A stretch of DNA of 60,369 nucleotides from Eubacteriales Family XIII. Incertae Sedis bacterium. GTDB taxonomy: Bacteria > Bacillota > Clostridia > Peptostreptococcales > Anaerovoracaceae. Shown piece by piece: positions 1,187-30,947 of this stretch. Below the pieces are notes generated by a model that worked only from the letters and a program-made list of their open reading frames with translations, was not told the DNA's origin and did no database searches. Numbering within the stretch: position 1 is the stretch's first letter; each line of letters begins with the position of its first letter. The position numbers and the translations under genes were made by a program. The DNA lies in the NCBI GenBank assembly GCA_031276135.1, contig JAISNR010000087.1, forward strand, positions 1 through 60,369. Reading direction: 5' to 3'.

Positions 1187-1191
1187 CAACC

Positions 1192-2061: not shown

Positions 2062-2115
2062 TTTTTCATCGCAGTTTCCATATTAAACAATATCATTTTG
2101 AAGGAGGGTTTTTCA

Positions 2116-2526
2116 ATGGCACAGGAACAAAACACCGCCGCGACCAAGATCGAGGCGCGGGCGTATCCCATCAAAAATCCGGGCAAGGGCAGCAACATGC
2201 TGGCTTACGCAAGTATCATCATTGACGACAAGTTCGCCGTGAGCGGTCTGCGCGTGCTTGCCGGCGAGAAAGGGCTGTTCGTGTCCATGCCGCAGACGCG
2301 GGACAACACGGGCAAATGGCGGGACATCTGCAATCCAATCATTCCCGAACTGCGCGGGCAGATTAACGAAAAGGTTTTGGACGAATTCGCCGCCGCGATT
2401 GACGCGCTGGCGAACGAGCGCGAGTCCACCGTGGCAAGGCTGCGCGACGCGGCAAAGACCGCGAAGGAGCGCCCCGCCGCGCCGCCGAAAGACAAAGCGG
2501 TCAAGAAGTCCGAGCCGGAACTGTGA
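2116..2526 (+). CDS. SpoVG-family-like protein carried on the ICE
   Basis: GAAGGAGGG RBS, then ATG at 2116. The peptide ...IEARAYPIKNPGKGSNMLAYASIIIDDKFAVSGLRVLAGEKGLFVSMPQTRDNTGKWRDICNPI... follows the SpoVG pattern (V.v.i.......lkA.asv..dd.f.i.glrvieg..GlFvamP). It ends in the charged tail ...KERPAAPPKDKAVKKSEPEL. Confidence 0.75.
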   Translation: MAQEQNTAATKIEARAYPIKNPGKGSNMLAYASIIIDDKFAVSGLRVLAGEKGLFVSMPQTRDNTGKWRDICNPIIPELRGQINEKVLDEFAAAIDALANERESTVARLRDAAKTAKERPAAPPKDKAVKKSEPEL

Positions 2527-2537
2527 GGAGGTGCGGC

Positions 2538-3674
2538 ATGGCAAACGACGCAATACTGTGTCTGAACGGCGAAATAAAGCCCGGTGATTCGGTGATTTCC
2601 GTGGGCGGCGGCGCTTATCGTTATCTGATCGGCGAAGTTCGCTCAATTGACGGGTCCGAAACCACTGAGCACACGACCGGTATCCGTGTCGATTTCACCG
2701 TCTTTGATTATTACGACGACAGGATCGGAGAAATCGAAGCGGCGTTCGAGAAACTCCGCGGATATGCCGCAGCTTTTGAAGACTTGCCTCTGGACGACGC
2801 GATTGTGGCGCCGGGCACATTGATCCGCTTCGGCCCCAATGACATCAGCCGCGAGGAATTGGACATGATTCTTGAAAGCGAGGAAAGCGCCGCCGCATTC
2901 TGCGACGGCGAATTTGCGCGCCGGATGGGGATAGAAATCCCCGACTCCGCGCCGGAACGGAAGGGCTATGTCGTCGCGGAGTCGGACGGCGATGGATATA
3001 TTCCCGGCGCGTTGCACATTGAGCGTAACGACAGTTTGTTCATGTACCCGAACGACAGCGAGGCGGCAAGAGCCGCCGAGGCGGACGGCGTCAAACTGAT
3101 TTATGGGCTGCCGTATATCCCGGACGGCATGTATCTCGACACGCCGGAAAACCGCGCGCTCATCGGGCGCGTTTCCGAGGAAACGAGGCTTGCCATGCCG
3201 GCGACGGGGGAACTGCTGCGAAAACTCCATGCGCGTCTGGACGAGTGCTACGGCCGCTGGGAAAACGTGACGCGGATGCGCGACAAAAAGTTCCTGTTCG
3301 ACGACGCGGAGTCAATCGCGGCGACCCGCCTGTCCTACGGGTATTTCAGGAACGAGTATGAGTTCACTGTGGGACGGGCGGAGTTCCTGCTCAAATTCGA
3401 GAACCCGCTTGATCTCCTGTCCGACCGCTGGGCGGACAGTGCGCTCCTTGTCGCCCGCCGCACCGCCAAGGCGGTTTTCGGCGACCGGAACCGGACGCCG
3501 GAGCATGGCGACTGCCGTCCGGCGTCGGAAGCGGCGAGGCAACCTCTGATCCAAACGCGGGAAGACGGCTTGACGTCCGTCCTCGACACCCTGCGCCGTG
3601 CGCGGGAGAATCCCCCGGAACACGCGCCTAACCCGGACCGGCCGGAACGGAATAAGCCCGATCATGACCTGTGA
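2538..3674 (+). CDS. Hypothetical ICE accessory protein (378 aa), acidic, with a conserved C-terminal tail
   Basis: ATG at 2538 lies after GAGGAGG. The ORF is long, has the same codon style as its neighbours, and no recognised catalytic motif. It ends ...LTSVLDTLRRARENPPEHAPNPDRPERNKPDHDL. Confidence 0.55.
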   Translation: MANDAILCLNGEIKPGDSVISVGGGAYRYLIGEVRSIDGSETTEHTTGIRVDFTVFDYYDDRIGEIEAAFEKLRGYAAAFEDLPLDDAIVAPGTLIRFGPNDISREELDMILESEESAAAFCDGEFARRMGIEIPDSAPERKGYVVAESDGDGYIPGALHIERNDSLFMYPNDSEAARAAEADGVKLIYGLPYIPDGMYLDTPENRALIGRVSEETRLAMPATGELLRKLHARLDECYGRWENVTRMRDKKFLFDDAESIAATRLSYGYFRNEYEFTVGRAEFLLKFENPLDLLSDRWADSALLVARRTAKAVFGDRNRTPEHGDCRPASEAARQPLIQTREDGLTSVLDTLRRARENPPEHAPNPDRPERNKPDHDL

Positions 3675-3691
3675 GAGGAGGAAAAATCATT

Positions 3692-5830
3692 GTGAATACG
3701 GAAAAACATATAACGCTCGGCAGTTTGTTTGACGGCATAGGGGGCTTCCCCCATGCCGGTTCTTTTTTCGGGATCGAGCCGCTGTGGGCAAGCGAAATAC
3801 TAACCCAAGCGGTGTCGGTCACAAAGCGTCATTTTCCCGCGATGGAACACGTCGGCGACATTATGAAGCTTGACGGGGCGAAACTGCCGCCCGTGGGCAT
3901 CATCACCTTCGGCTCGCCCTGTCAGGACCTTTCGACCGCCGGGCGGCGCGCCGGAATGGGCGGGGCGCGGTCGGGCCTGTTTTACGAAGCGATACGAATA
4001 ATTGACGAAATGAGGAGGGCCACCGATGGCAAATACCCAACCCACGCCGTCTGGGAGAACGTCCCCGGCGCGCTCAGTTCGGGAAACCCGCGCGGAAGCG
4101 ACTTTCGCGCCGTGCTTGAATCGTTCACAAAAACCGAAATTCCAATGCCTGCTTCCGGAAACTGGGCAAACGCCGGAATGGTGCGAAGCAAGGGAGTTAA
4201 TCTCGCTTGGAGGGTGCTTAACGCCCAACATTTCGGAGTCCCGCAACGGCGCCGCCGCGTCTTTCTTGTCTGCCGTTTTGGAGCCGGATGCGCCGGTGAA
4301 GTATTGTTTGTCGAAAAAAGCCTGCGAGGGCATCCTGCGCCGTGCGGCGAAGCGGGGCAAGGAATTGCCGCCGATGCTGCGGGAGGCGCTGGAGGCGCAG
4401 TGCCGGGAGGCGGCTGCCTGACGCCGTGGGATGTGCAGAGCCGCCGCGTTCACGCGGAGGGCGGCGCGTGGCCCGCGCTGTACGGCGCCGAGGGCGGCGG
4501 TCACGGCTACGCCGCGGTGGATTGCCTGAATCCATGGGATACCCAGCAGTCGCGGGTATTCACCGAAGACGGCGCGGCTCCTACGCTTGCCGGCGCCGAC
4601 GGCGGCGGGGGCAGGAATCCGGGCGGGCTTGTCGCGGCGTTTCTCGGCGGGGCTTCCGCGAAGTCGCGGAGCATCGGCTACAGCGAGGAGGTTTCCCCCA
4701 CGCCGGAATCCGTCGCCTGCGGCTTCTCGTCTCCCCGGCTGTGCGAACCTGAGCTTGCGCGGACGCTTACCGCGCGCGGCGACGGCAGCCCCAACCTTGA
4801 CGGCGGGCCGAACGTGGTCGCTTTGAGCGTTCATCAGAACCAAGCCGGTAACGTAAGCGTATCGGAAACGGCGTACACCCTCGCCACCAACGGCAATGCC
4901 ACCGGACGAAACGCGCCGTTGGTGGCGCATGAGAATATGGCGGCGGGCGTAACCTCCAAAGGCGACGGCGACTGTTTTCTTACGCCGGAATGCCACGGCG
5001 CGCTCTCGCGGGGCGGCGGACAAGCGGGGCAAGGTTATCCGGCCGTGCTTGTCGCGCACCCAGAGGTGTCCGGCACGCTCTGCGCGTCGGGCGCGGGTCT
5101 GTCACGCCCCGGGGGTATGGCGTCTGAACCCGACCTCTGCGTGGCTTACGCTCTCGCCGGGAATATGGTCGGGCGCCGGGAGCGCAACGGGCCCAACGGC
5201 AGCGGCGTCAGCGAGAACCTCGCGTTCACTCTGACCGCAACGGACGTCGAGGCTGTGGCCGCCGCGCTCCCGATTCCCATACAGGACAAGGCCGCGCGGC
5301 ACAACGGCGGCGGACTTACCCGCAACGGCGACGGGGCCGGAAACGGACTCGGCGTAGGCAAACCGGGAGATCCCGCGCCCACCGTCACGGCGGGCGACCG
5401 GCACGCGGTGGCGGCGGTATTTAACCGTCAGCGCAGCGATTTGTTCAAAGAAGAGGATGTAGCCTGTACCCAGGCGGCGCGGCAATACAAGGACGCGACG
5501 GATTTGGTGTGCGAATCCGGTGTATCTGCTGTTGATTGCCGCAACCATAAGGAGATCGGCGACATGTCCGGCACGCTGCAGGCAAAGAACAAGCCTGGCT
5601 ATTCGCTCAATTTTCAGAACCCGGTCAGAGCCGGCTACATCGTGCGCCGGCTCACGCCCACGGAATGCGAGCGGCTCCAGGGATTTCCTGACGGCTGGAC
5701 ACGGTTCGGCGCGGCGGGCGAGGAAATCAGCGACACGCGCCGCTATCAGATGCTTGGCAATTCGGTCGCCATCCCCTGCGTGGCGTTCGTGCTGGGCAAT
5801 ATCGCGCTTCAGATTCGAGGTGACGCCTAA
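3692..5830 (+). CDS. DNA (cytosine-5) methyltransferase with a greatly expanded variable (target-recognition) region
   Basis: Motif I LFDGIGGF, IV GSPCQDLS, VI ENVPG, VIII QRRRRVFLV, IX RRLTPTECERLQGFPDGWT, X YQMLGNSVAIPC. About 458 aa lie between motifs VIII and IX. The start is placed at GTG 3692, 10 nt after GGAGG; the GTG at 3671 is an alternative. Confidence 0.9.
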   Translation: MNTEKHITLGSLFDGIGGFPHAGSFFGIEPLWASEILTQAVSVTKRHFPAMEHVGDIMKLDGAKLPPVGIITFGSPCQDLSTAGRRAGMGGARSGLFYEAIRIIDEMRRATDGKYPTHAVWENVPGALSSGNPRGSDFRAVLESFTKTEIPMPASGNWANAGMVRSKGVNLAWRVLNAQHFGVPQRRRRVFLVCRFGAGCAGEVLFVEKSLRGHPAPCGEAGQGIAADAAGGAGGAVPGGGCLTPWDVQSRRVHAEGGAWPALYGAEGGGHGYAAVDCLNPWDTQQSRVFTEDGAAPTLAGADGGGGRNPGGLVAAFLGGASAKSRSIGYSEEVSPTPESVACGFSSPRLCEPELARTLTARGDGSPNLDGGPNVVALSVHQNQAGNVSVSETAYTLATNGNATGRNAPLVAHENMAAGVTSKGDGDCFLTPECHGALSRGGGQAGQGYPAVLVAHPEVSGTLCASGAGLSRPGGMASEPDLCVAYALAGNMVGRRERNGPNGSGVSENLAFTLTATDVEAVAAALPIPIQDKAARHNGGGLTRNGDGAGNGLGVGKPGDPAPTVTAGDRHAVAAVFNRQRSDLFKEEDVACTQAARQYKDATDLVCESGVSAVDCRNHKEIGDMSGTLQAKNKPGYSLNFQNPVRAGYIVRRLTPTECERLQGFPDGWTRFGAAGEEISDTRRYQMLGNSVAIPCVAFVLGNIALQIRGDA

Positions 5831-6234
5831 TGCCCTTCGTGCCTGTTCCCAAGGATTTAACCAAAGTCAAGACGAAAATCGCGTTAAACCTCACCAAACG
5901 CCAATTAATCTGCTTTAGCACCGCCGCCGCCGTGGGGCTGCCCGCCTATCTGCTGACCAAAGGCGCCATAGGCAACAGCGCGGCGGTGTTGCTCATGATT
6001 GGGTTGATGCTGCCGTTCTTTTTTCTCGCTATGTTTGAGAAGGACGGCCGGCCCGCCGAGAAAATCCTGCGGAATTTTATCCGCGCCAAGCTCCGGCCGG
6101 GTACGCGCCCCTACAGGACGGAAAATCTGTACAAATATCTGAGCGAAGGAGGAGAACACCTTGCAAACCAAAAACAAACGGCAGCAGACGCGCCTCGCGG
6201 AAAACGTGCGCCGGGCAAAATCAAACCGCGCTGA
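5830..6234 (+). CDS. PrgI-family / VirB3-like small membrane protein
   Basis: MPFVPVPKDLTKVKTKIALNLTKRQLICFSTAAAVGLPAYLL...AAVLLMIGLMLPFFFLAMFEKDGRPAEKILRNFI. It has two TM helices and sits directly upstream of, and overlapping, the VirB4 gene, as is usual for this family. Confidence 0.7.
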   Translation: MPFVPVPKDLTKVKTKIALNLTKRQLICFSTAAAVGLPAYLLTKGAIGNSAAVLLMIGLMLPFFFLAMFEKDGRPAEKILRNFIRAKLRPGTRPYRTENLYKYLSEGGEHLANQKQTAADAPRGKRAPGKIKPR

Positions 6235-8653
6235 CGCGAAGGCCGCCCCCCGCGCAAAGCCCCAGGCTAAGAAGCCGGCCAAGACCGCGGGAGTTTCCTC
6301 ATCCCTGTCGGCGAAGCTGTTCGGCAGGGCCGACAAGCCCCAAACATCCCAACAGTCCATTCCGTACCGGGAAATGCACCGCGACGGCGTCTGCCGCGTC
6401 ACCGACCGGCTCTACACCAAGACGATGACCTTTTCGGATATAAACTACCAGCTGGCGCAGAACGAGGACAAGAGCGCCATCTTCGACGCCTACTGTGAAT
6501 TCCTCAACTATTTCGACTCGTCCATCTCCGTTCAGCTGACCTGCGTCAACAAGCGGGTCAACGTCCGCGAGTTCGAGCAGTCCGTCGACATCCCGCGCAA
6601 GGACGACGCCTTTGACTCCATCCGGCGCGAGTACGCGGATATGCTGAAAAATCAGCTGGCGCGGGGCAACAACGGTCTTGTGAAAACGAAATACATCACC
6701 TTCGGCATCGAGGCCGATTCTCTCAAAGAAGCCAAGCCCCGCTTGGAGCGCGTGGAGGCCGACGTGCTGAACAACTTCAAGGCGCTCGGCGTGTCGGCGC
6801 GTCCGCTATCAGGCGCGGAACGGCTGGAAATCCTGCACGGCCAGCTTCACCCTGACGGAAACGAGAAGCTCCGCTTTGACTTCAAGGACATCGTCAGGAC
6901 GGGAACCTCCACGAAGGACGCCATCGCACCCACCGGCTTCGACTTCCGTGACGGGAAAACCTTCCGTATGGGAAACCATTACGGCGCGGTCAGCTTTGTG
7001 CAGATACTCGCGCCGGAGCTTACCGACCGTATGCTGGCTGACTTCCTCGATATGCAATCGCCGGTGACCGTCACCCTGCACATCCAATCCATCAATCAGA
7101 GCGAAGCCATCAAAACGGTCAAGCGCAAACTGTCGGATTTAGACAAAATGAAGATTGAGGAGCAAAAAAAGGCGGTACGCGCCGGGTACGATATGGATGT
7201 GCTGCCCGCCGACCTCGTCACCTACGGCAAGGAGGCCGCCGCGCTGCTGGGCGATTTACAATCCCGCAACGAGAGGATGTTTCTCGTTACCATCCTCGTT
7301 TTGAACACCGCGAAGAGCAAGCAGAAATTGGAGAACGACGTTTTTGCCGCGGCGGGCGTCGCGCAAAAATATAACTGCCAGCTGAAACGGCTGGACTGGC
7401 AGCAGGAGCAGGGCCTCATGTCCTCGCTTCCGCTGGGACTGAATCAGATTGAGATTCAACGCGGCCTGACCACATCCTCGACCGCTATCTTCGTGCCGTT
7501 CACCACGCAGGAACTGTTCCAGCACGGCGAGGCGCTCTACTACGGGCGCAACGCCCTGTCGGGCAATCTCATTATGGCTGACCGCAAGCGATTAAAAAAT
7601 CCGAACGGCCTGTTCCTCGGTACGCCGGGCAGCGGCAAATCTTTCAGCGCCAAGCGTGAGATCGTTAACGTGTTCCTTATGACCGAGGACGATATCATCG
7701 TCGCCGATCCCGAATCGGAATATTTCCCCATCGTCCGGCGGCTCGGCGGTCAGGTGGTGAAGCTCTCGCCCACGTCAACGCAGTATCTGAACCCGATGGA
7801 TATAAACTCAGACTACGCCGACGACGAAGATCCGCTCACGCTCAAAAGCGACTTCATCCTGTCGCTCTGCGAACTCATCGTGGGCGGCAAGGACGGACTC
7901 GCGCCGGTGGAAAAGACAATCATCGACCGCTGTGTGCGGCTGGTCTATCGGGATTACCTGACCGGCCTCGCGCGCAGCGGCGCCGCAAGCCCGGAGAAGA
8001 TGCCGGTGCTGGAGGATTTGTACAATCTCCTGCGGGCGCAGTCAGAGCCGGAGGCGCAGAATCTCGCCACCGCGTTGGAGATATACGTCACCGGCTCACT
8101 CAATGTTTTCAATCACAGGACAAACGTCAACGTTTCGAACCGCTTGGTCTGCTTCGATGTAAAGGAGCTTGGCAAGGGTCTGAAAAAGCTCGCCATGCTG
8201 ATTCTCCAGGACGCCGTTTGGAACCGCGTCACGCAAAACCGCGCAGCCAAGCGCACCACATGGTTCTACATCGACGAGATGCACCTGCTGCTCAAAGAGG
8301 AGCAGACGGCGGCATACACGGTGGAGATTTGGAAACGCTTCCGCAAGTGGGGCGGCATACCCAGCGGATTGACGCAGAACGTTAAGGACTTGCTGGCGTC
8401 ACGCGAGGTGGAGAACATCTTTGAAAACTCTGACTTCGTGTACATGCTCAACCAAGCGGCGGGTGACCGACAGATCCTCGCCGGGCAGCTTGGCATCTCG
8501 CCGCATCAGCTGTCCTACGTCACCCACTCAAACGCGGGAGAGGGTCTGCTGTTTTACGGCGATGTCATCATCCCGTTTCAGGATTTTTTCCCGAAAGAAA
8601 CCGAATTGTACTCACTTTTAACAACCCGGTTATCCGAGTCTGTTGCGGGGTAG
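6161..8653 (+). CDS. VirB4-like conjugal transfer ATPase
   Basis: TTG at 6161 lies 8 nt after GGAGG. Walker A GTPGSGKSF. DPESEY and ...WFYIDEMHLLL (Walker B-like). The N-terminal SIPYREMHRDGVCRV...YTKTMTFSDINY is typical of Firmicutes VirB4/TcpF-type ATPases. Start codon uncertain. Confidence 0.9.
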   Translation: MQTKNKRQQTRLAENVRRAKSNRADAKAAPRAKPQAKKPAKTAGVSSSLSAKLFGRADKPQTSQQSIPYREMHRDGVCRVTDRLYTKTMTFSDINYQLAQNEDKSAIFDAYCEFLNYFDSSISVQLTCVNKRVNVREFEQSVDIPRKDDAFDSIRREYADMLKNQLARGNNGLVKTKYITFGIEADSLKEAKPRLERVEADVLNNFKALGVSARPLSGAERLEILHGQLHPDGNEKLRFDFKDIVRTGTSTKDAIAPTGFDFRDGKTFRMGNHYGAVSFVQILAPELTDRMLADFLDMQSPVTVTLHIQSINQSEAIKTVKRKLSDLDKMKIEEQKKAVRAGYDMDVLPADLVTYGKEAAALLGDLQSRNERMFLVTILVLNTAKSKQKLENDVFAAAGVAQKYNCQLKRLDWQQEQGLMSSLPLGLNQIEIQRGLTTSSTAIFVPFTTQELFQHGEALYYGRNALSGNLIMADRKRLKNPNGLFLGTPGSGKSFSAKREIVNVFLMTEDDIIVADPESEYFPIVRRLGGQVVKLSPTSTQYLNPMDINSDYADDEDPLTLKSDFILSLCELIVGGKDGLAPVEKTIIDRCVRLVYRDYLTGLARSGAASPEKMPVLEDLYNLLRAQSEPEAQNLATALEIYVTGSLNVFNHRTNVNVSNRLVCFDVKELGKGLKKLAMLILQDAVWNRVTQNRAAKRTTWFYIDEMHLLLKEEQTAAYTVEIWKRFRKWGGIPSGLTQNVKDLLASREVENIFENSDFVYMLNQAAGDRQILAGQLGISPHQLSYVTHSNAGEGLLFYGDVIIPFQDFFPKETELYSLLTTRLSESVAG

Positions 8654-8688
8654 CAAGATTTCAATTTCACACATTTAGGAGGAGCGAT

Positions 8689-8928
8689 ATGATCAATATC
8701 AATGAAAAATCCCCGGATACCTATACCGCCGCGGAAGTGCCGGAGATTCTGACGCTCTTTTCCGAGGCGCCGGACGCTGCCGACAAAGCTGTCAGCGTCG
8801 CGGCGGGTTGCTTAGATTACCTTGAGTCGGAGGAGTACGGCAAGCTGTTGGAGTGGCGAGAATTCGTCAACTTTTTCACAGAGCAAGTCTCCGTGAAGGT
8901 GGGTAACGGCGCGGAGGTCGCGTTATGA
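8689..8928 (+). CDS. Small acidic hypothetical protein (79 aa)
   Basis: Strong RBS TTAGGAGGAG, then ATG at 8689. Its stop overlaps the next start (ATGA). No motif recognised. Confidence 0.5.
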   Translation: MININEKSPDTYTAAEVPEILTLFSEAPDAADKAVSVAAGCLDYLESEEYGKLLEWREFVNFFTEQVSVKVGNGAEVAL

Positions 8929-9719
8929 GAGCCGCCCGGATTACGGAACACGCAGAGGTGAAGGAGCTTCTTTCCATCCTGCGCGAGAACAACATCGACG
9001 CGAAGGACTTGACCGCCGTCCTCGCGTCCGTCGACGCGATGGAGCGGCAACTTTCGGCGGCTGCCGGGGAACTGACAGCCATGCGGCGGGAGCTTGCCGG
9101 TATGCGCGAGGAGCGAAACCACCCGATGCGGACGCTTTTGCAAAAAGCAGAGCGGTCGCTGTCCGGGATGGTCAGGAATCTGCGCGCCAAGCTCAAAGAG
9201 ATTAAGGACGGCATCGTCGGCGGCTGCCGGCGCGCCGTGAGCGCGTTTAAGGATACGGGCGTTTCCGCGCTGAACAATCTCGCCGGGTTCTTCGACGTTA
9301 AGCCCGCACTGGAGTCCATGCGCGACAATCTGAACGAGAGCATCGCAGCGGCTGAGAAGTCCGTCGCCGGGATCGAGGCCGCCGCCGAGCAGTACCACTC
9401 GGCGGGCCGCGCCGTCCGCAACATCGGACGCGCCATTTCCGGCAAAGAGCCGATCCCCGAAATCAAGCCCAACGGCAAGCTGGCGCGGCTGCTCCGGTCG
9501 CCGTTTCGCTTGGAGCTTCGGAATCTGAACGGTTCCTTGCGTAGCGTCAATAAGGCGCTGGCGGGGTTAGATAAATTAGAAAAAGCCGACGCCCGGCGCA
9601 AGGAGGCGGCGCGACCATCCACGCTGGAAACCATGAAGGTTCTGCGGGTGAAGGTGGAACAGCGCAAGAAAGACGCGCCCGCGCAGGAGAAAACCAAGCA
9701 GACGGAGGCCGCCATCTGA
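8925..9719 (+). CDS. Coiled-coil hypothetical conjugation-module protein (264 aa)
   Basis: Translationally coupled to the previous ORF. The sequence is heptad-like and rich in A/E/R/L (…LSAAAGELTAMRRELAGMREERN…). No catalytic motif. Confidence 0.5.
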   Translation: MRAARITEHAEVKELLSILRENNIDAKDLTAVLASVDAMERQLSAAAGELTAMRRELAGMREERNHPMRTLLQKAERSLSGMVRNLRAKLKEIKDGIVGGCRRAVSAFKDTGVSALNNLAGFFDVKPALESMRDNLNESIAAAEKSVAGIEAAAEQYHSAGRAVRNIGRAISGKEPIPEIKPNGKLARLLRSPFRLELRNLNGSLRSVNKALAGLDKLEKADARRKEAARPSTLETMKVLRVKVEQRKKDAPAQEKTKQTEAAI

Positions 9720-9760
9720 GCGGCTTCCGTCATTTTCGTATGAGGAGGTGAACCGGCGCG

Positions 9761-12622: not shown

Positions 12623-12642
12623 AAAATATGAGGAGGCACACG

Positions 12643-12915
12643 ATGAACCCCAAACTTCAAAAAACCGTCCGCGAGATTGAGCGGACGAAGGAGAAAATCG
12701 CCGAGCTTCAGGCGCTCCTGCCCGAACTGGAGAAGCAGAAGACCGACCTTGAGAACACCGAGATTGTCAAAGCCGTGCGCTCGGCCTGCGTCGCGCCCGG
12801 CGATCTCGCGGATTTCCTCGCGTCCTATCGGGCGGAGCTTGTCAAACAGCCCGCGCCGACAGCGGCGCGAACCGACTACCGGGAAACGGAGGCTCAGACC
12901 GATGACGAAGCGTAA
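12643..12915 (+). CDS. Small coiled-coil protein (DUF4315-like)
   Basis: AGGAGG at 12631, then ATG at 12643. MNPKLQKTVREIERTKEKIAELQALLPELEKQKTDLENTEIVKAVR... Its position after the hydrolase is typical for this ICE family. Confidence 0.6.
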   Translation: MNPKLQKTVREIERTKEKIAELQALLPELEKQKTDLENTEIVKAVRSACVAPGDLADFLASYRAELVKQPAPTAARTDYRETEAQTDDEA

Positions 12916-15653: not shown

Positions 15654-15694
15654 GCGCAAAGCGAGATTTTACGCGCCTTTTTCGCCAAACGGCC

Positions 15695-15722
15695 TTGACA
15701 ATCCGCAAACCTATGGTAACAT
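15695..15722 (+). promoter_or_regulatory. Candidate sigma-A promoter for the adhesin operon
   Basis: TTGACA (15695..15700), a 16-nt spacer, then TGGTAACAT (extended -10; TAACAT at 15717..15722). It lies in the only sizeable intergenic gap of the operon, 38 nt upstream of the 15760 start. Confidence 0.4.
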
Positions 15723-15759
15723 ACAACACAAGTTTAAGTGAACCATAGGAGGAAAGAAT

Positions 15760-16650: not shown

Positions 16651-16742
16651 CTCGCACAATCCCATATCAAGCGCAGAGGACGCGGCTTCGGCCGTGTCCT
16701 CTTTTTGCGCCCAAAATCAGACTGAAAAGGAGAGATTTTTCT

Positions 16743-23153: not shown

Positions 23154-23316
23154 TTCCCCAAAACAGTAAAATGGGTAACTAAAAAAATTGCCGAGGGTAT
23201 GCGGATATATCCCTTTTCGACTGTCGCTTCCCACCCCGGCTCTCCCTCCGGCACACCGCACGGGAAGCGCCCTGAAAACGGGGCGAAAAATTTGTTTCGA
23301 ACAAGCGAGAAAAGAC

Positions 23317-23345
23317 TTGCACAAGCCGCCGAACCAAGTTAACAT
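23317..23345 (+). promoter_or_regulatory. Candidate sigma-A promoter for the accessory-gene operon
   Basis: TTGCAC (23317..23322), a 17-nt spacer, then TAACAT (23340..23345), within a 244-bp intergenic region. It uses the same -10 hexamer as the 15695 candidate. Confidence 0.35.
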
Positions 23346-23397
23346 CACACAAGCCGCGGGAGCGGCAACTTAAAACCATTTGGAAAGGCGGTATATT

Positions 23398-24426
23398 ATG
23401 GAAATCATCGGGTACAACGTCACGGGCGCCGCCCGCAAGGAACTCGCCGGGGCGGTCGGCGAGTTTATCGGAGAGAAGGCGGTCTATCGGTTTGCGCCGT
23501 CCTTCGCGTTTACGGTGGGGCCGTACACCGTCGGCAGGGACGGTTCCCTCCGCTTCGAACCGTCCGAGGTCCGCAGGGACGAGTTTCGTGATCTGACGGC
23601 GCGCTTGGCGGCGCGAGGGTTCGAGCACGCGGAGATCGGGCGCGATCCCTTTGAGGACGACGACGCTTCGGGCGTGGGAGCGTCCGGCGCATCGCCCGCG
23701 GCGGAGTCCATCGCGGTTTGCGAGACGTCTGTGCGGGAGGAAAGGCCGGCCGATCCGTCGGATCACGCCGCACCTCGGGGAGTTGCCGCATTCAACGAGC
23801 GCTCCGGCCGACTGGCAATCGAGATGCCGCCTGACGGGTTCACCGGCACGGCGTTCGCCAACCTCGAAAAGCTGATCGCGGGCAAGGCCGCGCTGATCCG
23901 CAAGGCCGTGGGCGCGGAGGCGCTTCCCGTGGAACGCTCGGAGGACGGGCTTTCGTTCCCGTGGTTCAACGCGGACGCCTCGCCGGAGGCGGTCGGGGCC
24001 TGCGCCCGGTTCGTGTCCGCACTCTGCGAGACGGCGAAAAAGCAGAGGCGGGTGATCCTCAAGGAAAAGCCTCTCGACGAGGGCGCGTCTGAGAAGTTCG
24101 CCTTCCGCTGCTTCCTGCTGAAGCTCGGCTTCATCGGCGACGAGTACAAGGAGTCAAGAAGAATCCTGCTCGCAAACCTGTCCGGCAACGGCTCGCACAA
24201 GACCGGCGACGGCAAAAAGGCCGCGCCGGGGGCCGCTCCCGCCGCAATCGGCCACCATATGGGAATGCGCGGGTATCGGGACTGCCTCTGCTGCGGTCAT
24301 TCCATGAGCGAACCGGCTGAGAATGACGGTGACTCCGACCGGCTGTTCTGCGTCATCAAACGGGACTATGTCGGCGGTGAGCCCTGCGAGGAGTTCAATT
24401 GTCAGGGGGTGGCGGATCATGAATAG
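23398..24426 (+). CDS. Hypothetical ICE accessory protein (342 aa) with a Cys-rich C-terminus
   Basis: ATG at 23398. ...LSFPWFNADASPEAV...KFAFRCFLLKLGFIGDEYKESRRILLANLSGNGSHK... The C-terminus reads YRDCLCCGHSMSEP...LFCVIKRDYVGGEPCEEFNC and could be a zinc-binding knuckle. No function assigned. Confidence 0.5.
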   Translation: MEIIGYNVTGAARKELAGAVGEFIGEKAVYRFAPSFAFTVGPYTVGRDGSLRFEPSEVRRDEFRDLTARLAARGFEHAEIGRDPFEDDDASGVGASGASPAAESIAVCETSVREERPADPSDHAAPRGVAAFNERSGRLAIEMPPDGFTGTAFANLEKLIAGKAALIRKAVGAEALPVERSEDGLSFPWFNADASPEAVGACARFVSALCETAKKQRRVILKEKPLDEGASEKFAFRCFLLKLGFIGDEYKESRRILLANLSGNGSHKTGDGKKAAPGAAPAAIGHHMGMRGYRDCLCCGHSMSEPAENDGDSDRLFCVIKRDYVGGEPCEEFNCQGVADHE

Positions 24427-24940
24427 GGATGCGATTCTTCTTGAGCTTGAGGAAACCCGCGAGCTTCTGCTTGTCAAGATCAATGCCAGGGTGGACGCGC
24501 TGATCGAAGGGGTAAAAAGCGGCGAGCCGCTCGACGAAAGCTCGCCGGCCGTCGAAACGGTGTGGCCGCTGGGCATAAAGCCCGGCCTGTTCAAGGGGAC
24601 AAGGCCGGTCGCCGTACACTTCGGCGACGAGAGGGTCGAGGTCAAAAAATGGCGCGCGGTATACGCGCTGATCCTGCGTCGGTGCGCCGAAGAGCCGGAA
24701 ATGCGCGAGGCGCTTATGAGCCTCCGCAACAAAATCTCCGGCAGGACGCGAACCATCCTTTCCGATAAGCCCGACGGCATGGATTGCCCCATTGAGATCG
24801 CGGAGGGAATTTTCGTCGAAGGTTATTTCGACACGGAATGGCTGATCAAGACGCTTACCGTCGAGATTCTTGGCGCCATCGGCTATGACTGCGGCGATAT
24901 ATCCATTGCCGTCGTTCCCGGAAAAAAGCGGCGGAGATGA
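24419..24940 (+). CDS. Hypothetical protein (173 aa)
   Basis: In-frame ATG at 24419 overlaps the previous stop. MNRDAILLELEETRELLLVKINARVDALIEG... No motif recognised. Confidence 0.45.
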   Translation: MNRDAILLELEETRELLLVKINARVDALIEGVKSGEPLDESSPAVETVWPLGIKPGLFKGTRPVAVHFGDERVEVKKWRAVYALILRRCAEEPEMREALMSLRNKISGRTRTILSDKPDGMDCPIEIAEGIFVEGYFDTEWLIKTLTVEILGAIGYDCGDISIAVVPGKKRRR

Positions 24941-25013
24941 ACGGCATGACGAAACCGGGAGGCGCACCATGACCAAAAGCCACAAACCCCGCGGCGGCAT
25001 GGCGGAGGATTGA

Positions 25014-25385
25014 ATGGGGCGCACGATGGCGTGGCGACCCGCCGAAGACGGCGGCATTTGGGGCTGCAACGGCTGCACGGCCAAGAACTGCGCGAACGGG
25101 CGGGACGAAGATTTTTCCCGTTCGCCCCACGTTTGGGAATCCGCGGGCAAGACCGAGTGGTACGCCCACAAGCCGACGCCGGAAGACTGCCGCGCCATCG
25201 CCGGCGCGGTCAACGCCTGCCTTGAGGCCTTCCTTGCCTCGGCGCTTGACCGGGCGCATGGCAAGGACACGCCCGGTGCGACGAAGCCCTCGATGTTGGC
25301 CATGCCGGAGGCCGGCCGGAAGAAGCCGAAACAACCGCGCAAGGTCGCCGATCTGGGCCAAAAGCGCGGCGATACGGAACTGTAA
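25014..25385 (+). CDS. Small hypothetical protein (123 aa) with a conserved C-terminal tail
   Basis: GGCGGAGGA, then ATG at 25014. It ends ...KPSMLAMPEAGRKKPKQPRKVADLGQKRGDTEL and is followed by a clean terminator. Confidence 0.5.
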   Translation: MGRTMAWRPAEDGGIWGCNGCTAKNCANGRDEDFSRSPHVWESAGKTEWYAHKPTPEDCRAIAGAVNACLEAFLASALDRAHGKDTPGATKPSMLAMPEAGRKKPKQPRKVADLGQKRGDTEL

Positions 25386-25393
25386 GCCACACG

Positions 25394-25419
25394 GCTCCCG
25401 CTTCGGCGGGGGCTTTTTT
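25394..25419 (+). terminator. Rho-independent terminator
   Basis: GGCTCCCGC-TTCG-GCGGGGGC hairpin followed by TTTTTT (25414..25419), 9 nt after the stop at 25385. Confidence 0.65.
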
Positions 25420-25455
25420 CGTTGCCCAAACCCTATCAAACGGAGGAATCGCATT

Positions 25456-27567
25456 ATGAAAACCACATATCGCCTTGCGTTGGCCGAGAAGCCCTCGGTC
25501 GCGCAGTCCATCGCCGCCGTTCTTGAGGCCACCGACCGCAAGGACGGCTTTTTTATCGGAAACGGCTGGATCGTTTCCTGGTGCTGCGGACATCTCGTCG
25601 AGCTTGCCGCGCCCGGCGCTTACGGAGAGGAGTACAAACGCTGGAACCGCGCCGCGCTCCCCATTCTGCCGGAGACGTGGAAATACGCCGCGTCCGAGGG
25701 CAAAAAGAAGCAGCTTGACATCCTGCGCTCCCTCATGAGCCGCGCCGACGTTACCGCCGTGGTCAACGCCTGTGACGCCGGGCGCGAGGGGGAGTTAATC
25801 TTTCGCTTGGTCTACAACTACTGCAAATGCAAGAAACCTGTGCAGCGGCTGTGGATTTCCAGCCTTGAGGACGTTGCTATTCGGGAGGGGTTCGCGGGGC
25901 TGCGCCCCGGCGCGGACTACGACAGCCTGTACCGCGCCGCGCTCTGCCGCGCCCGGGCCGACTGGCTCGTGGGGATCAACGCCACGCGGCTTTTCTCCTG
26001 CCTGTACGGTTCGACTTTGAATGTCGGCAGGGTGCAGTCACCGACGCTTGCGCTGCTGGTTCAGCGCGAGGCGGCGATTGCCGCGTTCACGTCGGAGCCG
26101 TTCTACACGCCGCACATTGATTGCGGCGTGTTCGCGGCGTCCGGTGAGCGCCTACCCGACCGGGAGGCCGCCGAGAGTGTCCTCGCCGCCTGTGACGGCC
26201 GGTCCGCTTCCGTCCTGTCGGTGGAAAAAGCGGAGAAAACGGCCGCCCCGCCGAAGCTGTTCGACCTGACCTCGCTCCAACGGGAGGCCAACCGTCTGCT
26301 CGGCTTTACGGCCCGGCAGACGCTGGACTACGCCCAATCGCTCTACGAAAAGAAACTGCTCACCTATCCCCGCACCGATTCCCGCTATCTGACCGAGGGC
26401 ATGGCGGCCGGGTTGGAGAAGCTCGTCAACCTCGCCGCCATGCGGCTGCCGTTCATCAAAGTTCCGCTGTCCGTCAACGCCGGCGCGGTCATCGACGGCA
26501 AGCGCGTCACCGACCATCACGCCATCATTCCCACGGCGAACGCCGGCAAGAGCGACCTCGCCGCGCTTCCCTCCGGGGAACGCGAAGTTCTGAACATGGT
26601 AATCGCGCGCTTGGTCTGCGCCACCGCGCCCGCGCACACCTTTGAAGCGGTCACGGCAATCATGGAGTGCGGCGGACACCGCTTCACGGCGAAGGGCCGG
26701 ACGGTTTTGGTGGACGGCTGGAAGGCTATTGACGCCGCGTTCCGCGCCGGTCTGAAAAACAAGCCCGACGCCGACGAGGACGGCGAGGAGGATTCCGCTC
26801 TGCCGGATTTAACTGAAGGCCGGGCGTTTCCGTCCGTCACGGCCTCCGTCCGCGAGGGTAAGACCAAGCCCCCGGCGCGGTTCACCGAGGGTACGCTCCT
26901 GCGGGCGATGGAAACGGCGGGAGCGGAGGATTTCCCGGGCGACGCCGAGCGCAAGGGTCTTGGTACGCCCGCCACTCGCGCCGGCGTCATAGAAAAGCTC
27001 ATCAAGGGCGGTTTCGCCGTTCGCCTGAAAAAACAGCTTGTTCCCACGGAAAAAGGGACGGGTCTCATCGCCATACTGCCGGAGGATATTAAGTCCCCGC
27101 TGCTGACCGCCGATTGGGAGCAGAAACTCAAGCTCGTCGAAAACAACGCGCTCTCGGACGCGGACTTTATGGCGGGCATCGCGGCGCTCACAAAGGGGCT
27201 TGTGGCCGCCAACACCGCGCCGCCGGCCGAGTACGCCTCACTGTTCGCCGCGCCGCCCAAAGGCTCTGTAATCGGCAAATGTCCCCGCTGCGGCGCAGAC
27301 GTGACCGAGGAGGCGAAGGGCTTTTTCTGTTCCGGCCGCGCCTGCAAATTCGCGCTGTGGAAGGACTCGCGCTTTTGGGCAGCGAAGGGCAAAAAATTAG
27401 ACAAAAAGACCGCCGCCGCGCTTCTCTCGGAGGGGCGTGTTTCTTTTTCTGATTTGAAAAGCGAAAAAACCGGCAAGACCTATGCCGCAACAGTGGTTCT
27501 CACTGACGCGGACGGCAAAACGGAGTTCAAACTTGAATTTGACAATAACGGGAGGAAAATCGCGTGA
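25456..27567 (+). CDS. topB: DNA topoisomerase III (type IA)
   Basis: ATG at 25456 after GGAGGA. Toprim LALAEKPSVAQSIAAVL and ACDAGREGELIF. Active-site Tyr context LLTYPRTDSRYL. C-terminal zinc ribbon GKCPRCGADV...FFCSGRACKFALWK. Confidence 0.9.
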   Translation: MKTTYRLALAEKPSVAQSIAAVLEATDRKDGFFIGNGWIVSWCCGHLVELAAPGAYGEEYKRWNRAALPILPETWKYAASEGKKKQLDILRSLMSRADVTAVVNACDAGREGELIFRLVYNYCKCKKPVQRLWISSLEDVAIREGFAGLRPGADYDSLYRAALCRARADWLVGINATRLFSCLYGSTLNVGRVQSPTLALLVQREAAIAAFTSEPFYTPHIDCGVFAASGERLPDREAAESVLAACDGRSASVLSVEKAEKTAAPPKLFDLTSLQREANRLLGFTARQTLDYAQSLYEKKLLTYPRTDSRYLTEGMAAGLEKLVNLAAMRLPFIKVPLSVNAGAVIDGKRVTDHHAIIPTANAGKSDLAALPSGEREVLNMVIARLVCATAPAHTFEAVTAIMECGGHRFTAKGRTVLVDGWKAIDAAFRAGLKNKPDADEDGEEDSALPDLTEGRAFPSVTASVREGKTKPPARFTEGTLLRAMETAGAEDFPGDAERKGLGTPATRAGVIEKLIKGGFAVRLKKQLVPTEKGTGLIAILPEDIKSPLLTADWEQKLKLVENNALSDADFMAGIAALTKGLVAANTAPPAEYASLFAAPPKGSVIGKCPRCGADVTEEAKGFFCSGRACKFALWKDSRFWAAKGKKLDKKTAAALLSEGRVSFSDLKSEKTGKTYAATVVLTDADGKTEFKLEFDNNGRKIA

Positions 27568-29207
27568 ACAAATTTCCGTCAAAAGAAACAGTCGAAAGGC
27601 TTCGGAACCGGTATCCCGCGGGGACTCGCGTGGAGCTTGTGTCGATGAACGACCCCTATACCACGCTTCGTCCCGGCGACAGGGGCGCCATTGAATTTTT
27701 CGACGATACGGGCACCGCGTTCGTAAAGTGGGACAACGGCTCCGGGCTGGGATTGGTTTACGGCGAGGACAGTTTCAGGCGCGTCGAGAAGGAAATCAAG
27801 TACGAAACCGGCGCGGATTTTTGGCGAGATACCGCCGTAAGCCACGGCTTGGACGAGGCGCGCGTCATCTGCGGAAACTATCTCGCAACGCAGTTAAAAT
27901 TGAAACAACCCGACGATGAGCATAAGTTCTGTCGGGAGCTTTTCTCGGCGATATACGAGGCTTCGGCGGGGACGGCAGACCCCGTGAGGCTCGTCTATCC
28001 CCACTCCTTCGAGGACGCGAACAACCGGCTGGAAACCTCATATTTCCACGCAAGCCGCGAACGCAATGGCGAGTGCTCCCGCGATATCGACGCGGCAATC
28101 GACGGCTCCTGCTATGAGCGGTACCGCTACAATCTCGACCTCGCGGCGATGAAGGTATTGCACGAATACGGCTTTGAGCGTGTACAGGCGGTGCTGATGC
28201 ACAATATTTATACGCATGAGTACGACGGACGCTATTCGGACTCCAATAAGCAGTGGGCGCAGGGTTTTCATCTGCCGGAGGGAGCGTTCCAATCCGCTTA
28301 CATGAACGCGCATCCGATTCTCCTTGAGGATTTCACGAAACGCACCCGCGAACTGTACGAGGAACTCGGCGCGGAACGCTTCGCCTTGCCGGGTCGTGAG
28401 GAAAGCGGCGCGATTGTCCGCGGCTATGAAATCACGCGGTCGGTTTTCTTTGACGACCGGCGCGGCTTCGCCATCGGACATAACCCGGACGCGCCGTCGC
28501 CGTTTGTCTGCTGGCGGTTCACGACGGAAAACGGCAAGCGGGATTTCTATTGGGGAACCTACGCCGGCGACCTGAAAGGCGCGGCGGATAACTATACCGC
28601 CCGCGTTATCGTGCATTTAAGCGGCGGCGACGTGAAAGAAATCCCGAACCCGCCGGCCGCCGCCGAAATGACCGCCGAGCAGAACGGCAATATGATTGAC
28701 GGCGCGCGGAACAAAGAGCAGCCATCGGAGCCAACGACCGCCGAGCGGGAGTTCGCCGCGTGGATGGCTGTCACCGAGAACAGCCGCCATCGGTGGGTCG
28801 AGGACGACATCTACCGCCTGAACGGGCGCGGCGCGCTGTATTACACGGGCGGCGAGGACGGAACCTACATCCGAATCCAAAGCGACGGCGTTTTGGAGGC
28901 CGGAACGTATGAGGGGGCCGTCCCGCATATCGGGGAGGCCATGTTCCGTCCCGCGGTGGAACAGCGTTTCAACAACTTCTCCGACGCTATGACCGCAGCG
29001 ATGGAGGCGGGCGGCAGGAGGTTCTTGATAGATATGTTCAGCGCGGCGGAGCATTTGGCAACTGAGCAAGCGGCCCGGCGCGCCTACGAAAATCCGCGCG
29101 GCGAGAAACCGTCCGTTTTGAAGCGGCTAAGAGAGGCGCAGCGCGCTCCCAAGCCGCCGCGCAAGGGAAAAACGCCCGGTAAAAGCAGGGGCGATGTGGA
29201 GATATAG
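27564..29207 (+). CDS. Hypothetical ICE accessory protein (547 aa) with a DUF4314-like N-terminal beta domain and a conserved C-terminal tail
   Basis: GTG at 27564 overlaps the topB stop (GTGA), 8 nt after GGGAGG. The N-terminus reads ...YPAGTRVELVSMNDPYTTLRPGDRGAIEFFDDTGTAFVKWDNGSGLGLVYGEDSF. The protein ends ...KPSVLKRLREAQRAPKPPRKGKTPGKSRGDVEI. Confidence 0.6.
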   Translation: MNKFPSKETVERLRNRYPAGTRVELVSMNDPYTTLRPGDRGAIEFFDDTGTAFVKWDNGSGLGLVYGEDSFRRVEKEIKYETGADFWRDTAVSHGLDEARVICGNYLATQLKLKQPDDEHKFCRELFSAIYEASAGTADPVRLVYPHSFEDANNRLETSYFHASRERNGECSRDIDAAIDGSCYERYRYNLDLAAMKVLHEYGFERVQAVLMHNIYTHEYDGRYSDSNKQWAQGFHLPEGAFQSAYMNAHPILLEDFTKRTRELYEELGAERFALPGREESGAIVRGYEITRSVFFDDRRGFAIGHNPDAPSPFVCWRFTTENGKRDFYWGTYAGDLKGAADNYTARVIVHLSGGDVKEIPNPPAAAEMTAEQNGNMIDGARNKEQPSEPTTAEREFAAWMAVTENSRHRWVEDDIYRLNGRGALYYTGGEDGTYIRIQSDGVLEAGTYEGAVPHIGEAMFRPAVEQRFNNFSDAMTAAMEAGGRRFLIDMFSAAEHLATEQAARRAYENPRGEKPSVLKRLREAQRAPKPPRKGKTPGKSRGDVEI

Positions 29208-29231
29208 CCGTTTTGCGGCGGGAGGAAATAT

Positions 29232-29999
29232 ATGAGCGACAAGACAATCCGCTTTATTGACAGCGGTTACAACGAGCTTTTCAGCATTATGGACGGCGGG
29301 CGCATCCGCGTGACCTACCCGCCCGGCGACGGCAGAGAACCCGGCGTCCGTCAGTGCAAATATTTGGACGATACGCATTTTGAAGAAGCCGGGAACGGCA
29401 CGGTTTGGCACATATGTCAGTTCGCCGAACGCATGGAGGCGCTGGGCGCGCTGTACGAGCCGGAGTTCCGGGTCGCGGCGGAGCTCGCGCCGGGCGCGAT
29501 TGAGGACGCGAAGCTGTTCTACCGGAATCGTGAGGAGGGCAATACCTGTATCGGTCATCTGCGCGGCGACTTCGGTCGGAGTGGCGACAGCTTCTTTCAT
29601 TCGTGGGCTGACCATGACGGCGCCCGAAAGACGCCGGAATTCCGGGCGGAGTTCCAAGCTGTGATGTTTGAGCTGCGCCGGGGCGTTTTGAAAGACCACG
29701 CTGCGATGGCGGCGTACTGCCGCGCCCACCCGGAGGCAAAGCTGCCGGGCGACGCCAACCTTGAGCGCTACGGCTTTAAGCTGGAAACCGAGACGCGCCA
29801 ATACTTTGTACGCTGCACAACGCTGCGCGATGATTACTTCTACGTTTGGGCTTACGACAAGGCTCCGGCTGTGCGCGAACGGGAACGGCCCGCCGAAAAG
29901 CCATCCGTGCTGAAACAGCTGCGCGAGGCGCGGGAGGCTCCCAAGCCGCCGCGCAAAGCAAAAGACCAAAACAAAAACAAGGGGGACGCAGAGCTATGA
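29232..29999 (+). CDS. Hypothetical ICE accessory protein (255 aa) with a conserved C-terminal tail
   Basis: GGGAGGAAATAT, then ATG at 29232. It ends ...KPSVLKQLREAREAPKPPRKAKDQNKNKGDAEL, nearly identical to the tail of the preceding ORF. Confidence 0.55.
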   Translation: MSDKTIRFIDSGYNELFSIMDGGRIRVTYPPGDGREPGVRQCKYLDDTHFEEAGNGTVWHICQFAERMEALGALYEPEFRVAAELAPGAIEDAKLFYRNREEGNTCIGHLRGDFGRSGDSFFHSWADHDGARKTPEFRAEFQAVMFELRRGVLKDHAAMAAYCRAHPEAKLPGDANLERYGFKLETETRQYFVRCTTLRDDYFYVWAYDKAPAVRERERPAEKPSVLKQLREAREAPKPPRKAKDQNKNKGDAEL

Positions 30000-30032
30000 T
30001 GTCAACGGCCCTGTTTGAGAGCGAGGCGCAAT

Positions 30033-30383: not shown

Positions 30384-30509
30384 TCTCGCCGCCCGATTGA
30401 AAACAAACGGAAAACAGACGCAAAGAGCCTTTGTAAAGCACTCCGAACAGAGTTAAACCGGCACTGTAACAACAGCAAACGCTTGGTTCTGAAAGGATTT
30501 GTGGCATTT

Positions 30510-30800: not shown

Positions 30801-30913
30801 GGTAGTGTGTGAGCGGCGTGAGAGACGATGGGGCCTCGCGCCCCGCCTGCTTTTTCGCTCCTGCCGGTAAAAAAGCGGGAACAGCAAAAATTAATATAAT
30901 TCTGAAATTCATC

Positions 30914-30931
30914 GCGGAGCCACGGCTCCGC
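30914..30931 (+). promoter_or_regulatory. Perfect 7-bp-stem hairpin immediately upstream of the relaxase gene (oriT-type inverted repeat or terminator candidate)
   Basis: GCGGAGC-CACG-GCTCCGC followed by GCTTTTCATT, ending 17 nt before the relaxase start region. Confidence 0.3.
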
Positions 30932-30947
30932 GCTTTTCATTGAGGGG

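Follow-up and report, generated by a model that had tools for sequence, protein, structure and literature searches.

C-terminal signals of the Agrobacterium proteins VirF, VirE2 and VirE3 were reportedly described by Vergunst et al. in 2005. These substrates of VirB/VirD4-type type IV secretion systems (T4SSs) carry positively charged translocation signals at the C-terminus (PMC10025392). F-like systems likewise ship proteins: the substrates of the pED208 T4SS comprise ParA, ParB1, SSB, ParB2, PsiB and PsiA (PMC8406263), and a 'conjutome' has been described for F (PMC11288057). For Gram-positive systems evidence on substrate recruitment is limited, according to passages of a 2025 review (PMC12857230); how protein substrates are chosen there, and whether proteins are shipped at all, is largely unknown. 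Here we analyzed an integrative and conjugative element (ICE) on a 60,369-nucleotide stretch of contig JAISNR010000087.1 from an Eubacteriales Family XIII. Incertae Sedis bacterium; this whole stretch is referred to as the window. Five proteins of the ICE end in the same kind of tail, which is a portable, mostly disordered, strictly C-terminal peptide. Judging from its sequence and by analogy with described signals, the tail most likely serves as a recruitment or export tag for the T4SS, a reading that we hold with about even confidence.

A first-pass annotation of the window had reported one type of tail on five unrelated open reading frames (ORFs). This is confirmed, as the translations are exact and a stop codon directly follows each tail. 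The tagged genes and their tails, as translated, are the following.

2098..2526, + strand: SpoVG-domain protein, 142 amino acids (aa) counted from the first start codon; tail at 2416..2523, the full 36-residue module, ERESTVARLRDAAKTAKERPAAPPKDKAVKKSEPEL
2523..3674, + strand: p383, a 383-aa protein of unknown fold; tail at 3570..3671, LTSVLDTLRRARENPPEHAPNPDRPERNKPDHDL
25014..25385, + strand: p123, a 123-aa protein of unknown function; tail at 25284..25382, KPSMLAMPEAGRKKPKQPRKVADLGQKRGDTEL, with a degenerate helix and an intact spacer and tip
27564..29207, + strand: p547, a 547-aa protein with the Pfam domains DUF4314, DUF3849 and DUF4316; tail at 29106..29204, KPSVLKRLREAQRAPKPPRKGKTPGKSRGDVEI
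29232..29999, + strand: p255, a 255-aa protein of unknown fold; tail at 29898..29996, KPSVLKQLREAREAPKPPRKAKDQNKNKGDAEL

When their last 38 residues are removed, no two of the five proteins are similar (BLASTP, all E > 0.7). At full length the significant matches run from tail to tail only (p547-p255 E 9e-12, p123-p255 6e-7, p123-p547 3e-6), while p383 and p255 match tail to tail at E of about 0.05. In order to avoid circularity, we built a profile from 70 tails that all come from other elements and searched the 1,050 six-frame segments of the window. The five tails fall within the top six, with E-values of 3.5e-16 for p255, 1.6e-12 for p547, 2.4e-6 for p383, 4.6e-4 for SpoVG and 0.027 for p123; the sixth is one spurious segment (E 0.026). 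A simple tip motif ([RLI] at -1, [ED] at -2, [ED] at -4 and at least two K/R in -10..-5) is found at the C-terminus of SpoVG, p383, p547 and p255 and at 0.066% of internal positions. The p123 gene is missing from this scoring because the ORF filter dropped it, and its tip KRGDTEL fits the motif by inspection. The tips in the window are KNKGDAEL, KSRGDVEI, KRGDTEL, KKSEPEL and NKPDHDL.

The first-pass annotation had divided the tails into three strong and two weak ones, which holds in part. Against outside tails p547 and p255 are indeed the strongest, but p123, placed with them, is the weakest of the five: its helix part is degenerate (MLAMPEAG) and it aligns with positions 12-33 only of the hidden Markov model (HMM) of outside tails. 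The two tails called weak, that of p383, which has diverged in the window, and that of SpoVG, are true members, with orthologues that bear intermediate or canonical tails. The SpoVG tail had been limited to 19 residues at 2467..2523; the module is in fact longer, aligning over model positions 1-33 and reaching the stop. Pfam places the SpoVG domain at residues 29-98, and the NCBIfam SpoVG model (96 positions) matches residues 31-105. As this model stops at residue 105, the last ~37 residues must be appended to the SpoVG domain. In p547, DUF4316 occupies residues 362-392 and the tail residues 515-547, and a DUF4316 match is absent from the other four carriers; the tail is thus distinct from Pfam DUF4316. 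For p383 we obtained no Pfam or NCBIfam match, and its database gene call of 378 aa is consistent with a start five codons downstream. The fetched loci contain no homologue of p123. The gene itself is real, as evidenced by a GC content at third codon positions of 0.82, similar to that of its neighbors, by GGAGGA 5 nucleotides 5' of the ATG and by a terminator-like hairpin (GGCTCCCGCTTCGGCGGGGGCT) with a T run at 25393..25414, between the p123 and topoisomerase genes.

An alignment of 60 non-redundant tails shows a length of ~33-36 residues and three parts (profile consensus KPSVLKQIREARKAPKPPRKAKEPGKKKEGPEL). The tail begins with a Ser-capped amphipathic helix (PSVLxQIRxA), written [K/R/E]-[P/E]-S-[V/T]-[L/M]-x-x-[I/L]-R-x-A, where in the helix start S-V-L-x-x-I-R-x-A the Ser is invariant and the Val nearly so. 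A Pro/Lys-rich spacer such as A-P-K-P-P-R-K follows, and the free carboxyl end is formed by a tip of the form [K/R]n-[D/E/G]-x-[E/D]-[L/I], with R or H as the last residue in some close homologues and most distant relatives. The AlphaFold2 model of p255 (mean predicted local distance difference test score, pLDDT, of 83) is folded over residues 1-210, disordered at 214-224, helical at 226-235 and then disordered to the end. The p383 model (mean pLDDT 74) is folded to about residue 315, with a helix at 348-357 that is flanked by disorder on both sides. In both, the single 10-residue helix falls exactly on the SVLxxLRxA stretch. A fold search with the two models against the PDB gave no meaningful match (best E 0.05 and 0.24, template modeling score below 0.35). 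The mean net charge over the 60 tails is +4.7, with +4.1 in the spacer and -1.5 in the tip; the tails in the window carry +3 to +8, with the exception of p383 at -1. The tail itself falls outside all Pfam and NCBIfam models.

Searching 1.84 billion representative proteins with the 60-tail profile (E <= 1e-3) yielded 97 proteins of 31-834 residues. The first-pass annotation had proposed a portable module and named strict C-terminal placement as a check, and both are borne out. The match lies at the extreme C-terminus in 97/97 proteins; where a few matches seem offset, a longer spacer still leads to an end such as ...KKKSQPEL. The final two residues are EL in 50, DL in 11, EH in 10, ER in 10, EI in 3 and others in 13. 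Carriers belong to at least 13 Pfam families. Among the 80 of the 97 that were scanned with Pfam, we counted DUF3849 (18), DUF3848 (9), DUF6329 (7), DUF4316 (5), DUF4314 (2) and ArdA (2), together with one carrier each of topoisomerase, DUF4240, DUF6900, YodL, LPD25, LPD28 and DMP19. The DUF3848 protein P0136 has only the 45-residue tail in common with p383, at 67% identity. For p255 we found 431 homologues, and about 80 of the best 120 share the tail, always at the C-terminus. p383 has 17 homologues, and intermediates such as GEKPSVMEQIRQAAKEARERPTIPKDSQARNKSGPDL link its window tail to the canonical form. SpoVG orthologues with the same module are encoded in L083-L085 (fetched loci are numbered with an L), and those adjoining VirD4 in two metagenome contigs end RESTVAKMRETARSLKERPAPEKTPEKA...AGAEL. 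All 14 homologues of p547 in the fetched loci end in ER, EL or AR. The consensus tail had no match in 72,556 plasmids (tblastn), where p547 produced DUF4314 matches only; a pattern scan of 2.9 million viral contigs gave no confirmed tail, and a metagenome scan with the SpoVG protein returned two weak irrelevant loci only. Literature searches on DUF3849/DUF4316/DUF4314 and on Gram-positive translocation signals brought up no earlier description of the tail.

Set beside the described systems, the tail appears to work like the C-terminal signals of Gram-negative T4SSs, yet it is a member of no defined class. Like the Agrobacterium VirB/VirD4 signals it is short, unstructured, net-positive and found at the extreme C-terminus of unrelated proteins: it lies within the last ~50 residues, is unstructured apart from one 10-residue helix and has a positive mean net charge. 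The Agrobacterium signals are read by a system that also moves the relaxase-DNA complex, whereas export of the present tail is a proposal. Moreover, they are Arg-rich and loosely defined, with no conserved helix or fixed last residues, while the tail of these Gram-positive ICEs is Lys/Pro-rich with a Ser-capped helix and an acidic-x-acidic-L/R tip; its consensus lacks the VirB/VirD4 Arg pattern R-x7-R-x-R-x-R. In F-like systems, too, establishment and partition proteins travel with the DNA, and distant relatives of our element have a ParB family with an E-R tip and ParA ending in x-R; for F, however, no common sequence tag was found and the signals are heterogeneous, C-terminal or internal, where here one recognizable module is shared. 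The Xanthomonas XVIPCD and the Bartonella BID-plus-tail are portable C-terminal modules as well, each marking an effector set for one coupling protein (PMC10025392, PMC8740702). They are folded domains of roughly 100-120 residues, in contrast to the 33-36 mostly disordered residues of the tail, which contains no such domain. The tail also differs from the Dot/Icm E-block (Glu-rich from -10 to -17, hydrophobic near -3), being K/R-rich at -10..-5 (31-42% K) and acidic at -4 and -2. Instead of an ssrA/ClpX-type non-polar end such as LAA, it has the final pairs given above with charged residues before them. The acidic tip of SSB docks into a pocket of its partner. The tail of F TraD binds TraM, as stated in passages of the review (PMC12857230). 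Both are free acidic-plus-hydrophobic C-terminal tips on a flexible linker, as is ours, but there the tip of one protein recruits many partners, whereas here many proteins have the same tip and presumably one partner. Finally, polyvalent proteins and LPD domains of conjugative elements are predicted to act early in the recipient, according to the portions consulted of Iyer et al. 2017 (PMC5512222), and our LPD25, LPD28, ArdA and giant methyltransferase-SNF2 carriers belong to the repertoire outlined in them. Keyword look-ups in those portions brought up no C-terminal tail in common. In our elements the domains mostly come as individual genes with one tag copy each.

The tip reaches further than the helix. 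A genome scan for the p255 family gave 80 loci from Oscillospiraceae, Lachnospiraceae, Christensenellales and other Clostridia, most of them distant. The p255 homologues of the distant loci have no PSVL helix, and nearly all close with x-E-R after a basic run. The 80 related loci and the window together have 960 ORFs with a length of 80 aa or more, of which 209 (22%) end in E-R, against 4.2 expected, and 372 (39%) end in R; 208 of the 209 E-R-ending ORFs lie on the ICE strand. Their position profile (K/R at -10..-5, E/D at -4 in 62%, E at -2, R at -1) is the pattern of the window tips with R replacing L/I. The strict tip motif occurs at 17.9% of + strand termini, at 0/223 - strand termini and at 0.066% of internal positions. 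At least 10 unrelated families have terminal Arg in common, including ParB, a ~2,700-aa LPD25/methylase/SNF2 polyvalent protein, the p255 family and several small proteins of unknown function, while the adhesin, RepA_N/DUF6017, TnpV, topoisomerase-sized and MobC families are without it. Since the loci are mutually related, the independent evidence is the number of families, about 10-13 unrelated ones, and not the raw counts. The sister tip without the PSVL helix is borne by L008-L080, for example by seven consecutive genes at 6222..20372 of L024.

The last residue is mostly uniform within an element: 64 loci are pure R, 3 pure L/I and 5 mixed. Relatives of the R type occur in cultured strains, namely Blautia hansenii MSK.15.26, Acetatifactor muris DSM 23669, Dorea amylophila H5_25 and Lachnospiraceae JLR.KK009. 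The window has four scored L/I tips and the relaxase in R, and the unscored p123 ends in L. Such uniformity within most elements suggests a single reader for each element or lineage; few evolutionary events may lie behind it. Close homologues can toggle, as P0025, a p255 homologue with 65% overall identity, ends ...KNKDKGDAER where p255 ends ...KNKGDAEL. A single codon step separates L, R and H (CTN, CGN, CAY). Tail identity amounts to 49% within a locus and 40% between loci.

Tagged genes occur in runs. L089 has six consecutive ones (DUF3849, p255-like, DUF3849, DUF4316 with LPD25, DUF6329 with ArdA, and a 147-aa protein) and L091 has seven, and both runs sit between the topoisomerase and TTRAP-MobC. 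In L085 five lie within 12 kb (DUF4240, DUF3801, SpoVG, p383-like and a 176-aa protein), and L004 encodes five tagged proteins. A locus-wide scan of 92 sources (1.34 Mb, 23,947 six-frame segments, E < 0.01) gave 40 matches, all 40 on the ICE strand, and 38 of them end at most one residue from the stop. The carrier neighborhoods contain VirD4, Maff2, TrbL_2, PrgI, MobC and relaxase. Proteins of the machine are untagged (VirD4, Maff2, TrbL_2, PrgI, VirB4, NlpC/P60), as are the adhesin, topoisomerase, a radical-SAM-like protein, TTRAP, MobC, DUF5699, integrases, methyltransferases and all evident cargo genes. The first-pass annotation had stated that the T4SS proteins, methyltransferase, topoisomerase, MobC and relaxase of the window lack the tail. 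This is true of the module, but the relaxase ends in a related tip (...RRERETQREER; ...RRSTEL in L001).

Three local arrangements were seen besides. At 15454..17678 of L091, the tip KDKGGPEL is identical in ArdA and in the next protein, of 223 aa, although the latter lacks both helix and spacer, which suggests local copying of the tip alone. L004 contains at 15644..15844 an orphan tail-coding stretch (...NRPSTLAHIRAAEQEREHPPAPRKKPKHKTDPEL) with a frame break before it and at least 13 further codons after it, probably a decayed gene or an assembly error. We considered tails between the domains of polyproteins and saw none, the sole internal copy being this frame-broken remnant. Directly upstream of VirD4, the DUF3801 protein bears a tail variant ...KERPSTRDAMHKFRDRIRNAVRDKTKHKHREGPEL (L084 5819..6334; L085 4601..5077).

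A shared peptide could also be a functionless by-product at the DNA level, arising from gene conversion, from an overlap with the ribosome-binding site or an RNA signal of the following gene, or from biased composition. Conversion does occur, as the tail pair of L001 is nearly identical in DNA (92% identity, 2/28 synonymous differences). Sequences like AAGGAG lie inside the last codons of some relatives, and CGA is over-used as the last codon: it makes up 32% of terminal but 9% of internal Arg codons in the E-R-ending ORFs of L001-L080, across several families, and the terminal Leu codons of PSVL tails likewise favor NNA (CTA, TTA). The codons at large are nonetheless at odds with a DNA-level origin. 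In PSVL-type tails, 48% of the codons for identical residues differ within a locus and 53% between loci. The L004 tail pair has 68% residue identity, yet 19/21 identical-residue codons differ. The three strong window tails have residues but not codons in common; p547 and p255 share 67% of tail residues, of which 10/22 have different codons. Terminal Arg of E-R termini uses all six codons (CGA 67, AGA 47, AGG 35, CGC 31, CGG 22, CGT 7), mixed within each family, and terminal Leu uses four. The six codons rule out E-R-stop as the Shine-Dalgarno sequence of the next gene. Recent gene conversion as the general cause is ruled out by synonymous sites near saturation and is accepted for the L001 pair. 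Together with the in-frame, C-terminal position of all 97 database matches, this codon analysis largely refutes a DNA-level origin, which we regard as very improbable. Synonymous codons are scrambled, hence selection acts on the protein.

A peptide under such selection might instead dock its carriers to a shared partner outside export, such as the relaxosome with MobC, the ParAB machinery, single-stranded DNA or SSB, or a common chaperone, and so gather accessory proteins at the element DNA in the donor or the new host. The same shared-partner evidence (strict C-terminal placement, protein-level selection, uniform last residue) would fit equally, the basic spacer could touch nucleic acid, the L-type acidic-hydrophobic tip resembles partner-binding tips such as the SSB C-terminus, and DUF3801 and ParB-type proteins are tagged. 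However, DNA binding alone would need neither a free C-terminus nor a fixed last residue, the carriers differ widely in activity and have no evident need to co-localize in the donor, and the machine and relaxosome proteins MobC and TTRAP are untagged, so we consider docking of this kind unlikely. A C-terminal degron seems improbable as well. Through it, a protease-unfoldase of the host or the element would keep potentially harmful accessory proteins scarce in the donor or clear them after establishment. The tail is short, disordered, portable and strictly C-terminal, like the ssrA and MuA tags with their critical last residue; it marks many proteins of one regulon, and its lineage-dependent last residue could follow the specificity of the host protease. 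Yet E-L, E-R and E-H ends after charged residues are unlike the known bacterial C-degrons with non-polar ends, a conserved 10-residue helix plus spacer exceeds what a degron needs, and the L/R toggle among close homologues (P0025 and the window) is difficult to reconcile with a conserved host protease.

We favor, at the strength stated above, recruitment to or export by the T4SS. All tagged proteins of an element would be read by one common partner which, going by the uniform last residue, would be specific to the element or its lineage. The likeliest candidate is the substrate-receptor side of the T4SS, where either VirD4 itself or an adaptor attached to this coupling protein would do the reading. 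In this way, proteins for establishment and anti-restriction would be enlisted to enter the recipient along with the DNA, the proposed set being ArdA, DNA mimics, polyvalent-protein domains and SpoVG, with ParA/ParB in relatives. We prefer export because the carrier repertoire suits a new host: anti-restriction ArdA, a DMP19-like DNA mimic, LPD and other polyvalent domains and giant methylase-helicases are of the kinds thought to act there. In addition, ParB, and more loosely ParA, bears the sister tip in relatives, and ParA/ParB are T4SS substrates of an F-like plasmid (PMC8406263); positively charged C-terminal signals serve VirB/D4 systems (PMC10025392); and polyvalent proteins are, in the passages cited, predicted to travel with the DNA (PMC5512222).

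Several observations weigh against export. The relaxase, the only certain T4SS substrate, lacks the module of helix and spacer and shows no more than a related tip. The tagged DUF3801 protein, adjacent to VirD4, is possibly a machine accessory. ParA homologues end in x-R and not in E-R, and the window tail of p383 is net negative. With mobC and the relaxase gene as its neighbors, the tagged block could instead act through early expression from incoming DNA, with no protein transfer. The loci being phylogenetically related, the large counts reflect few independent events, and the switch from L to R may likewise represent a few evolutionary events only.

The ICE portion of the window comprises, apart from the tagged genes, the following features.

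about 1..32,400, + strand: ICE portion of the window, from a Clostridia-type organism
82..837, + strand: C-terminal part of a VirD4-type coupling protein, the candidate receptor; no tail, terminus ELPEPPPPEAFAA
3671..5830, + strand: cytosine methyltransferase
6161..8653, + strand: VirB4
9761..12622, + strand: NlpC/P60 wall hydrolase
16647..23153, + strand: giant SpaA-type adhesin
about 25456..27567, + strand: topoisomerase without tail; in related elements it borders the tagged-gene block on the upstream side
30015..30383, + strand: MobC/NikA-like relaxosome protein (Pfam) without tail; homologues end ...IK
30948..32381, + strand: relaxase without the module, with the basic/acidic tip ...DDRRERETQREER; its L001 orthologue ends ...RERGQERRSTEL

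The window has a GC content of 57.6%. Its VirD4 fragment is homologous to the VirD4 genes of L084 and L085 (T4SS-DNA_transf, TrwB_AAD_bind and TraG-D_C domains), which lie at 6331-8145 of L084 and 5074-6882 of L085. The VirD4 termini of L-type elements share a conserved Pro-rich acidic-hydrophobic tail (ELPEPPPPEAFAA, LPEAPPPEAFAS, LEEPPPPDAFTT), located as follows.

796..834 of the window: VirD4 Pro-rich acidic-hydrophobic tail
about 8104..8142 of L084: VirD4 Pro-rich acidic-hydrophobic tail
about 6841..6879 of L085: VirD4 Pro-rich acidic-hydrophobic tail

This VirD4 tail may itself be a docking peptide. A comparison of VirD4 C-termini between L-type and R-type elements gave no interpretable pattern among the few sequences.

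The 565-bp non-coding gap between mobC and the relaxase gene (30383..30948) contains short inverted repeats at 30846-30879 and 30913-30932 and is, by its sequence, a candidate origin of transfer (oriT) region; if it is oriT, the tagged-gene block adjoins the transfer origin. The SpaA-type adhesin (2,168 aa) terminates in LPRTGY-stop (23139..23156), and neither a hydrophobic anchor nor a basic tail follows the sortase motif. In the fetched loci, homologues terminate in ...FGVLAAMSRKRKED, and the sorting signal of the window adhesin appears truncated. Outside the ICE, two overlapping + strand ORFs at 34158..36468 resemble an IS21-type transposase/helper pair, and several very large repeat-rich surface proteins of up to 1,987 aa are encoded on the - strand at 36596..60320. 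None of the ORFs in these two regions is tagged.

On a broader scale, we tentatively propose, with somewhat less than even confidence, that Clostridia ICEs use an export signal that can be read from sequence. It would consist of a basic run and [D/E]-x-E-[R/L/H] at the free carboxyl end, often with the PSVLxQIRxA helix before it, and would mark all the proteins that accompany the DNA through a Gram-positive T4SS, with the last residue matched to the element's own receptor. About one in five ORFs of the surveyed regions would be marked, among them those for ParA/ParB, giant anti-restriction polyvalent proteins, ArdA, DNA mimics and SpoVG. If the tail is an address label, the 35-residue peptide is directly testable in reporter-transfer and binding assays, and the tag could serve as a handle to deliver engineered proteins into Clostridia. 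Even as a docking peptide or degron it would be an undescribed regulatory peptide common to the whole regulon of a mobile element. If the proposal is true, tagged DUF3849, DUF3848, DUF6329, DUF4240, p255 and p383 become candidate anti-defense or establishment factors. The co-transferred proteins of thousands of ICEs from uncultured gut bacteria and anaerobes could then be listed from sequence, and the 'conjutome' of gut Firmicutes would become predictable.

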